Part shown: positions 30,063 through 30,425 of the stretch, piece by piece
How the letters are laid out: each line of letters begins with the position of its first letter
Numbering within the stretch: position 1 is the first letter of the stretch
Source of the DNA: Octopus vulgaris
Lineage: Eukaryota
Direction of reading: 5' to 3'
Length of the DNA stretch: 64,000 bases
Assembly: GCA_951406725.2 (NCBI GenBank)
Contig: OX597818.1
Span: 23,746,001 to 23,810,000, forward strand
The notes under the pieces: model-generated
What the model was told of the DNA's origin: nothing
The model's input: only the letters and a program-made list of their open reading frames with translations
Databases searched by the model: none
Made by a program: the position numbers and the translations under genes

Positions 30063-30425
30063 TATTAATAGTTATCGCCATACTAATATGGCAGTCTTAT
30101 AAATATAAGACTAAAGCTGTCGCTGATTAGCTCCAAGAGGCCACCGCCTCAAGCTAGCTATTTGACACACGAACCTGCGTCCATTACAAACCTTCGAACA
30201 AGGGAGGTCAGCCGCTTGATCCTGCCAGTCAGACAGCTACAGACATGTTTCAGGGTTGTTGCCCCTTATCAATGCAGCGTAGTCAGACTTGCAGGTGTCG
30301 CTACTGATCGTCCCAGTTCGAAGGCTTTATTTACCTAGTTTCAGTGGAATACATCCACTTGTTTTCAATAATAGAAATATTAAAATTACTAAGTCTCTCA
30401 TATTAGTATGGCGATAACTATTAAT
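30063..30425. mobile_element. 363-bp non-coding element with 27-bp terminal inverted repeats and a central hammerhead
   Basis: ATTAATAGTTATCGCCATACTAATATG / CATATTAGTATGGCGATAACTATTAAT; nested internal complementarity. Confidence 0.75.
30236..30278 (-). ncRNA. Minimal type I hammerhead, U3:A8 variant
   Basis: GCUGCA-UUGAUAA-GGGG CAACAA CCCU-GAAA-CAUG-UC-UGUAGC; 6-bp stem I; palindromic stem III ACAUGU; GUC triplet. Confidence 0.72.

Follow-up and report, generated by a model that had tools for sequence, protein, structure and literature searches.

The closest described relatives of the repeat reported here are the non-LTR retrozymes of metazoans (Cervera and de la Pena 2020, PMC7229834), above all the mussel repeats of 350-390 bp; as elsewhere below, the comparison covers those parts of the cited publications that were accessible. 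These elements likewise consist of short tandem units with one type I hammerhead ribozyme each and no ORF, and they also have a self-paired predicted circle, duplications of more than 4 bp and Penelope-like elements (PLEs) in the same genome. Unlike those descriptions, the octopus family, which is known from sequence alone, has a U3:A8 hammerhead core, dispersed short insertions, two fixed 3' ends (A and B) and frequent inversions that combine A with B. PLEs of the Hydra clade (Craig et al. 2021, PMC8557442) and Poseidon (PMC11167929) share with the family an optional tail between two reverse transcriptase (RT) starts, 5' truncation and partial tandems, as well as an inverted flanking copy, a (TA)n target and a hammerhead, whereas the octopus family lacks an ORF and has a tail of 60 nt as against 30-40 in PLEs. 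The tail is often at one end according to the review (PMC8557442); in the octopus this A+B rule could be quantified. Which machinery moves animal retrozymes is a stated open question (PMC7761336), as is the way in which PLEs make their tail and inverted ends (PMC8557442), and a PLE origin of retrozymes has already been argued (bioRxiv 10.64898/2026.07.22.740005).

The window analysed is a stretch of 64,000 nucleotides of the Octopus vulgaris genome, in which an earlier reading of the letters had marked a 363-bp element as viroid-like or retrozyme-like, with perfect terminal inverted repeats (TIRs) around a hammerhead. When these 363 bp were used as query against the octopus's own genome (2.8 Gb), 2,547 candidates were obtained, so the copies that the original prediction wanted to be looked for form an abundant family. 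Two 22-nt motifs, with one mismatch allowed, had 1,152 and 4,914 matches genome-wide (reversed controls, 0), and an exact 30-mer of the hammerhead had 55. Units continue head-to-tail with a period of 361-365 bp, in tandem arrays of up to 5.5 units, and contain neither a protein-coding ORF nor an LTR, the predicted absence of an ORF being borne out across the copies examined. By sequence criteria the family classifies as a non-LTR retrozyme, with tandem units in the range of 150-450 bp, a type I hammerhead in each, no ORF or LTR and duplications exceeding 4 bp. The retrozyme-like half of the prediction thus holds; viroid-like autonomy is unsupported. Thousands of genomic DNA copies exist, and one hammerhead was seen, on one strand. 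A sister family with a 354-bp unit (3,221 candidates) is 64% identical to the window family over 119 nt, and its hammerhead, judged by eye, has the canonical C3:G8 core and another palindromic stem III. Four runs presumed to be RNA, available as assembled contigs, carry 114-523 family pieces, although such contigs show neither level, strand, ends nor circles. Pieces start recurrently at L061:3513, but this position lies in loop II and does not coincide with the cut site, so that we attribute these starts to branching in the assembly. Among runs X13-X19 (probe L061:3258-4093), three further coded organism labels (B, C and D) hold part of the family's words, X13 (B) with 114 contigs.

The perfect 27-bp inverted repeat is confirmed by self-comparison of the window, its left arm lying 1 nt from the predicted position (30064-30090 in place of 30063-30089, paired with 30399-30425). 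It is not terminal, and the boundaries 30063..30425 do not hold: bases 30426-30468 are still family sequence, so that the copy runs 43 bp beyond the right repeat, and most scored copies among the best 40 of the 2,547 candidates match positions 1-337 of the query and then a second unit 365 bp further, not the 27-bp arm. The window copy consists of a 336-bp main arm, 99% identical over 335 bp to copies L002, L037 and L066 (all three one locus), and a 70-bp inverted arm, which ends 17-18 nt before site A; the two overlap by 1 nt at their junction (Table 1). Since both arms contain the 27 bp upstream of B, their overlap reads as a TIR, and since inversion points differ between copies, this TIR is an accident of one insertion. 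A class of elements combining TIRs with a ribozyme, the new architecture that had been suggested, is therefore not real, and the feature is one copy of an abundant, ribozyme-bearing repeat of ~365 bp. The left end does adjoin a (TA)n tract as stated, here mixed with (TG)n.

Table 1. Features of the retrozyme copy and its flank, in window positions
Feature	Position	Strand	Remarks
Main arm, hammerhead sense	30064..30399	-	~30 nt of the preceding unit's 3' end, then one unit ending at internal site B (30064)
Inverted second arm	30399..30468	+	70 bp of the family 3' region, through site B towards A
Left half of apparent TIR	30064..30090		End of main arm
Right half of apparent TIR	30399..30425		First 27 bp of inverted arm; no element end
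(TA)n/(TG)n microsatellite beside the 3' end	29801..30063		Usual target of the retrozyme family
Type I hammerhead	30236..30278	-	U3:A8 core, palindromic stem III; predicted cut after 30242
Extended imperfect stem I ("nested pairs"), hammerhead at tip	30191..30324	-	Fold and three two-sided pair changes
Empty target site for LINE or ORF1-only derivative	30294..30307	-	Filled in other copies

The minus-strand hammerhead was found as predicted, with a 6-bp stem I, a 4-bp stem II, a GUC site and a palindromic ACAUGU stem III; Rfam did not detect it at the gathering threshold nor at E<=10, and its identification rests on motif and pairing. A U3:A8 core together with a 2-bp stem III suggests a slow ribozyme. 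Eight of nine Xenopus retrozymes gave no cleavage (bioRxiv 10.64898/2026.07.22.740005), and U3-A8 is a described variant of PLE hammerheads (PMC4209133): the minimal hammerheads of the Schistosoma PLE Cercyon likewise have U3-A8 for C3-G8 and a palindromic helix III, from which the octopus ribozyme differs by the canonical size of its helices I and II and by its retrozyme-type unit. Across 153 units, among which array units are counted and which therefore lack independence, conservation is 98.9% at the 12 core positions versus 90.9% elsewhere; variable columns number 0 of 12 in the core versus 76 of 353 outside it, which is not significant (Fisher p 0.08). The strict hammerhead pattern is fitted by 117 of the 153, and frequent variants keep the pairing (ACAUGU or ACGCGU in stem III; G-U, A-U or G-C as the closing pair of stem II). 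Among 12 hand-picked copies, pairing is kept in 95.3% of cells (0/500 shuffles) and three pairs of the extended stem I have two-sided changes. Lack of conservation, which would have spoken against the element, is thus not what the 153 units display. The nested complementary pairs are also present (30191-30199 with 30316-30324).

Both strands of 30063-30425 fold strongly compared with shuffles, the minus strand at -156.7 kcal/mol (z -13.4, and still -4.9 without the inverted repeat) and the plus strand at -131.4 kcal/mol (z -9.7). The strength of the fold thus agrees with the predicted rod but its shape does not, as an imperfect rod of ~60 bp tipped by the hammerhead is joined to a branched multiloop. 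Folded as a circle, a natural monomer is predicted to be stable (z -7.3), and both A and B then fall within hairpin loops that are AT-rich. Other hammerhead cores were noted in passing: C at position 4 (a CCGA core) in a Hydra-like PLE (L104:5140-5215) and in several retrozyme families, and U3:G8 in further families, all with intact stems (L104:5140-5215 and downstream of the insert in L307, L308, L313 and L336-L348). Elsewhere in the window, 26 bp at 20448-20473 match the stem III region of the hammerhead by 92%, possibly a fragment of a related copy.

Insertion ends were surveyed in loci L001-L070 and L140-L288, leaving out L237-L242 (which overlap L260) and clusters at locus edges. Because loci entered the samples through a motif match or a top BLAST score, the counts are not genome-wide frequencies, and one motif-selected sample under-represents B-only copies. 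The survey yielded 177 distinct insertions, 84 of them single-armed and 93 inverted back-to-back with both 3' ends facing outward. The 3' ends of the 270 arms lie at A (139), at B, which is 60 nt upstream of A (99), or elsewhere (32), whereas 5' ends are spread over the whole unit; 91 arms are longer than one unit and 11 longer than two, with lengths from 28 to 2,000 bp. Fixed ends, another point that the original prediction wanted to be checked, are therefore limited to the two 3' sites, 5' ends and inversion points being variable. A (TA)3 occurs within 12 nt of 107 of the 139 A ends and 73 of the 99 B ends (180/238 together), compared with 8 of the 32 other ends. The outer ends of the 93 inverted copies are A+B in 68 cases, A+A in four and B+B in none, the remaining 21 having a damaged end; this excess of A+B over independent choice has a binomial p of 2e-16 (72 copies), or 6e-8 for the 24 copies of the least biased sample, which was selected by a motif upstream of B.

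Target-site duplications, for which a check had also been suggested, are present and vary in length: of 21 insertions whose flanks are not microsatellite, seven have duplications of at least 9 bp (9-14 bp), versus 0.27 expected from shuffled pairs; at unique flanks in general, duplications are 9-15 bp long. Five clear duplications flank inverted copies, which indicates that these inverted copies are single insertion events. Microhomology of 1-4 nt occurs at the junction in 38 of the 68 A+B copies. Correlated stopping of the two arms was not found in these copies, arm lengths being uncorrelated and 5' ends coinciding in 3/68 versus 4.1 expected, so that there is no support for two RTs travelling together. 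Divergence is 2.6% between the arms of one insertion and 5.2% between separate insertions, a comparison that does not discriminate a circular from a multimeric template.

Remnants of GIY-YIG PLEs lie at 16,094 candidate places in the genome. A younger family among the octopus PLEs has a type I hammerhead near its end, a C-terminal GIY-YIG domain (weak in Pfam, E 0.022), a CxCX5C linker, which is given for the Hydra clade (PMC8557442), and a (TA)n target; by these features it is Hydra-like. It ends in (TA)n at two sites ~70 nt apart, and six of 30 PLE loci have two outward-facing ends, a long and a short one (five by script, the sixth by eye). In 14 longer loci that were translated no intact full-length ORF was seen, the longest coding frames being 352 and 282 aa. 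The PLE 3' end bears a weak likeness to the retrozyme (70-nt alignment, score 47 versus 32 for mononucleotide shuffles, in AT-rich sequence). A hammerhead-like motif in L103 and a sister element in L102 were considered as parts of PLEs and rejected, each being separate from the neighbouring PLE. Since this Hydra-like PLE has the same two-end pattern as the retrozyme, it or a relative likely drives retrozyme insertion, priming both cut strands. Movement via RNA by a PLE RT, as originally proposed, is likewise likely, in view of the two 3' ends, 5' truncation, inversions and (TA)n target, all of PLE type. The PLE protein of Poseidon from Anolis nicks and extends both strands in vitro, begins synthesis at two internal sites, by which the tail is delimited, and is predicted to form a dimer (Frangieh et al. 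2024, PMC11167929). The window itself contains decayed PLE RT-thumb and GIY-YIG fragments at 29008-29242 (-) and 35997-36886 (+), the latter being the query behind the 16,094 candidates.

The upstream sequence of three retrozyme copies is a shared 1.72-kb insert, which contains a single ORF of 445 aa and is bordered by a duplication of 14 bp. This ORF1-only family is abundant, often intact and often tandem. Of 49 distinct insert 3' ends, 28 are followed by a hammerhead of the strict pattern, in several retrozyme families (core 22-37 nt away, mostly 32-37), and six were flagged as adjoining another insert. At two loci a LINE with APE endonuclease and RT is stacked at the same site and has the same terminus as the ORF1-only insert. 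A hammerhead lies 32-35 nt downstream in 17 of the best 30 copies of the LINE end, versus 7 of 3,000 control windows; the other copies are followed by a decayed hammerhead judged by eye (three), an ORF1-only insert (two), 5' sequence of U2 (five, four of them in one cluster; Rfam confirms U2 in the two tested) or other sequence (three). At the window family's own site, 23 junctions with at most two mismatches were counted genome-wide, 15 of ORF1-only inserts, seven with ORF2 and one of a short stub. Thus the LINE and its ORF1-only derivative insert at one fixed site ~35 nt upstream of the hammerhead core, in the window family as well as in sister retrozyme families. We infer that retrozymes offer the two a safe place to insert that exists in many copies, and their transcripts could be trimmed by the hammerhead lying downstream.

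Five full-length LINEs (~5.4 kb) and one 5'-truncated copy, of seven inspected, have a 17-bp duplication, no 5' duplication being found at the seventh. ORF2 of the LINE in L447 (1,140 aa) contains Exo_endo_phos (APE), RVT_1 and zf-RVT domains, and its ORF1 a zf-CCHC. Two ORFs with APE and RT and a sequence-specific target are features of the Tx1 clade, whose members include Tx1L inserting into Tx1D, Tx1-Mar into Mariner and Keno into U2 (PMC4494074, PMC4640811); tandem stacking, the APE-RT-zf-RVT order, a fixed site in a multicopy repeat and the U2 target are shared as well. Unlike these LINEs, the octopus LINE has a hammerhead retrozyme as target and keeps a fixed distance to the ribozyme core even where the retrozyme families have diverged; it is likened to them by domains and target, not by a tree. 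No Tx1 reference appeared by name among the LINE protein matches, and the named relatives of a LINE of this genome are from Argonauta hians (up to 64% identity). The ORF1-only derivative resembles the half-L1 elements HAL1 (PMC5753468) in sharing a 3' terminus with its LINE; in contrast to HAL1, its protein and the LINE ORF1 have only 27% identity (E 2e-29). That protein had no Pfam match of note and no match in a word-indexed or Atlas search, whereas HMMER gave 321 relatives without a name, with a CCHC knuckle in six of 12 checked; its single-sequence fold was unusable (pLDDT 34).

Several further arrangements of these inserts were seen. LINEs lie at the extreme 5' end of U2 snRNA genes with a 14-bp duplication (L449:3566-9136, L450:3091-8677, L412 and L413), a site that presumably differs from that of Keno/Utopia inside U2. 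Arrays of up to seven ORF1-only copies with a period of ~1.8 kb have no hammerhead detected in the sequence examined around them (L372-L374, L376), so that a further target may exist, and a second, more distant ORF1-only family (~410 aa) is stacked beside the first in L381, L388 and L353. Composites of retrozyme and insert whose 5' truncation falls within the ORF and whose 3' end is site A (L214/L289, L309) suggest that PLE machinery may move LINE-derived cargo.

Taken together, the window copy is most probably one two-armed insertion of a ~365-bp, ORF-less hammerhead retrozyme, likely copied from RNA by a PLE, the family being separately targeted by a LINE. Read-through transcripts of arrays would be cut by the hammerhead into 365-nt monomers, which may circularise; as its stem III is palindromic, the hammerhead would probably cleave as a dimer. 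A Hydra-like PLE RT-endonuclease would bind the hairpin region of A and B, open a (TA)n target by cuts in its two strands, and start one cDNA at A and the other at B, one being primed from each cut end. The RT would copy up to several units, either by circling a monomer or by following a multimer, and the two cDNAs would join back to back over 1-4 nt of microhomology, unless one alone survives. We also put forward, with somewhat more doubt than confidence, a three-tier parasitism, in which a Hydra-type PLE dimer inserts circular retrozyme RNA by priming from two dedicated sites, one per cut strand, while target-specific, U2-related LINEs and half-LINEs have switched to retrozymes, track one site shortly upstream of the hammerhead through diverged families and use the ribozyme to cut the 3' end of their own RNA. 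Two dedicated start sites, if true, would be a general explanation of PLE tails and inverted ends.

One may also consider that a single cDNA starts from A or B and that the inversion arises by fold-back or by L1-style internal twin priming on one linear RNA. The common microhomologies at junctions and the closer likeness between arms of one insertion would fit such a course, but neither fold-back nor random internal priming would bring the second outer end to the other of the two fixed sites as often as in 68 of 72 copies, and simple twin priming does not yield two arms that span the same sequence, as found here, so that we regard it as rather unlikely. It is very improbable that the copies are 5'-truncated pieces of the pLTR of an autonomous PLE, the 365-bp unit not being mobile itself: although they have the hallmarks of PLE ends in common (hammerhead, tail, inversions and (TA)n; PMC8557442), although retrozymes are often homologous to pLTRs (bioRxiv 10.64898/2026.07.22.740005) and although the 177 insertions are a sample of some thousands of copies, all 91 arms above one unit wrap into another unit, and none of the 177 is contiguous upstream with an ORF for RT and GIY-YIG. 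Moreover, the 84 single-arm copies share no adjoining 5' sequence, except for the LINE-derived insert (three copies) and two unrelated repeat pairs, and PLE protein fragments near some copies are downstream or non-contiguous. An ordinary inverted pLTR had been named as the finding that would overturn the original prediction, to be recognised by variable inversion points and by continuation into a PLE ORF, of which the first is observed and the second is not. As for a MITE-like DNA element with TIRs, in which the hammerhead is there by chance, it can practically be dismissed. Small size, lack of an ORF and, in the window copy only, a perfect inverted repeat do recall MITEs, and a mariner transposase remnant lies 1.4 kb away; unlike MITEs, however, the family has no fixed ends, length or duplication size, no other copy among the best 40 of 2,547 candidates matches the full 363 bp, and the element extends past its right repeat.

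For the LINE and ORF1-only inserts, an alternative to active targeting would be one ancient capture that was spread with the retrozyme by the PLE machinery. This we consider improbable, even though there are composites with a 5' truncation inside the ORF and (TA)n flanks like those of PLE-type insertions (L214/L289), because LINE copies that have lost their 5' part still show the target duplication at this same site (L442, L439), as expected from independent LINE-type insertion. Inserts that have diverged from each other are also found there in tandem (L294-L298, L355). The sequence of the duplication is in each case that of the respective host family, and LINEs of this lineage occur at U2 as well.

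The interest of the family lies in the A+B rule of two-ended insertion, common to the host PLE, and in the targeting of a retrozyme by a LINE; if the plain reading alone is correct, the retrozyme families have gained one further member. As the substrate is only 365 nt long, exists in thousands of copies and follows the A+B rule almost without exception, it leads to the testable prediction that the two strands are primed at different sites, one at A and one at B. LINE homing on ribozyme-bearing retroelements would add a new class to the targets of site-specific LINEs, and U2 together with several retrozyme sites offers a natural series on how an APE endonuclease changes its specificity. Annotation based on TIRs will miscall such two-armed copies as MITEs. 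Active L1-Tx1 and Penelope families are named in an annotation of octopus repeats, the word ribozyme being absent from its accessible part (PMC13282606). In a literature search that left most subscription papers, Repbase and the supplement of PMC7229834 outside its reach, we found no report of octopod retrozymes, of LINEs targeting retrozymes or of an A+B rule, and examples of octopod retrozymes may be in print.

Two other features lie to the right of the window copy. Shortly after the truncated right arm, at 30547-30825 (+), starts a 92-aa open frame without a Pfam match, whose CxHC...CC...GKVKLP pattern we take to be of the type of the Helitron Rep N-terminus. A Helitron/Helentron end was considered as the source of the repeat in view of this Helitron-like fragment and rejected, as other copies are without that flank. 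Further on, at 31827-32767 (+), there is a broken mariner-type transposase (Pfam Transposase_1, E 2.6e-26).
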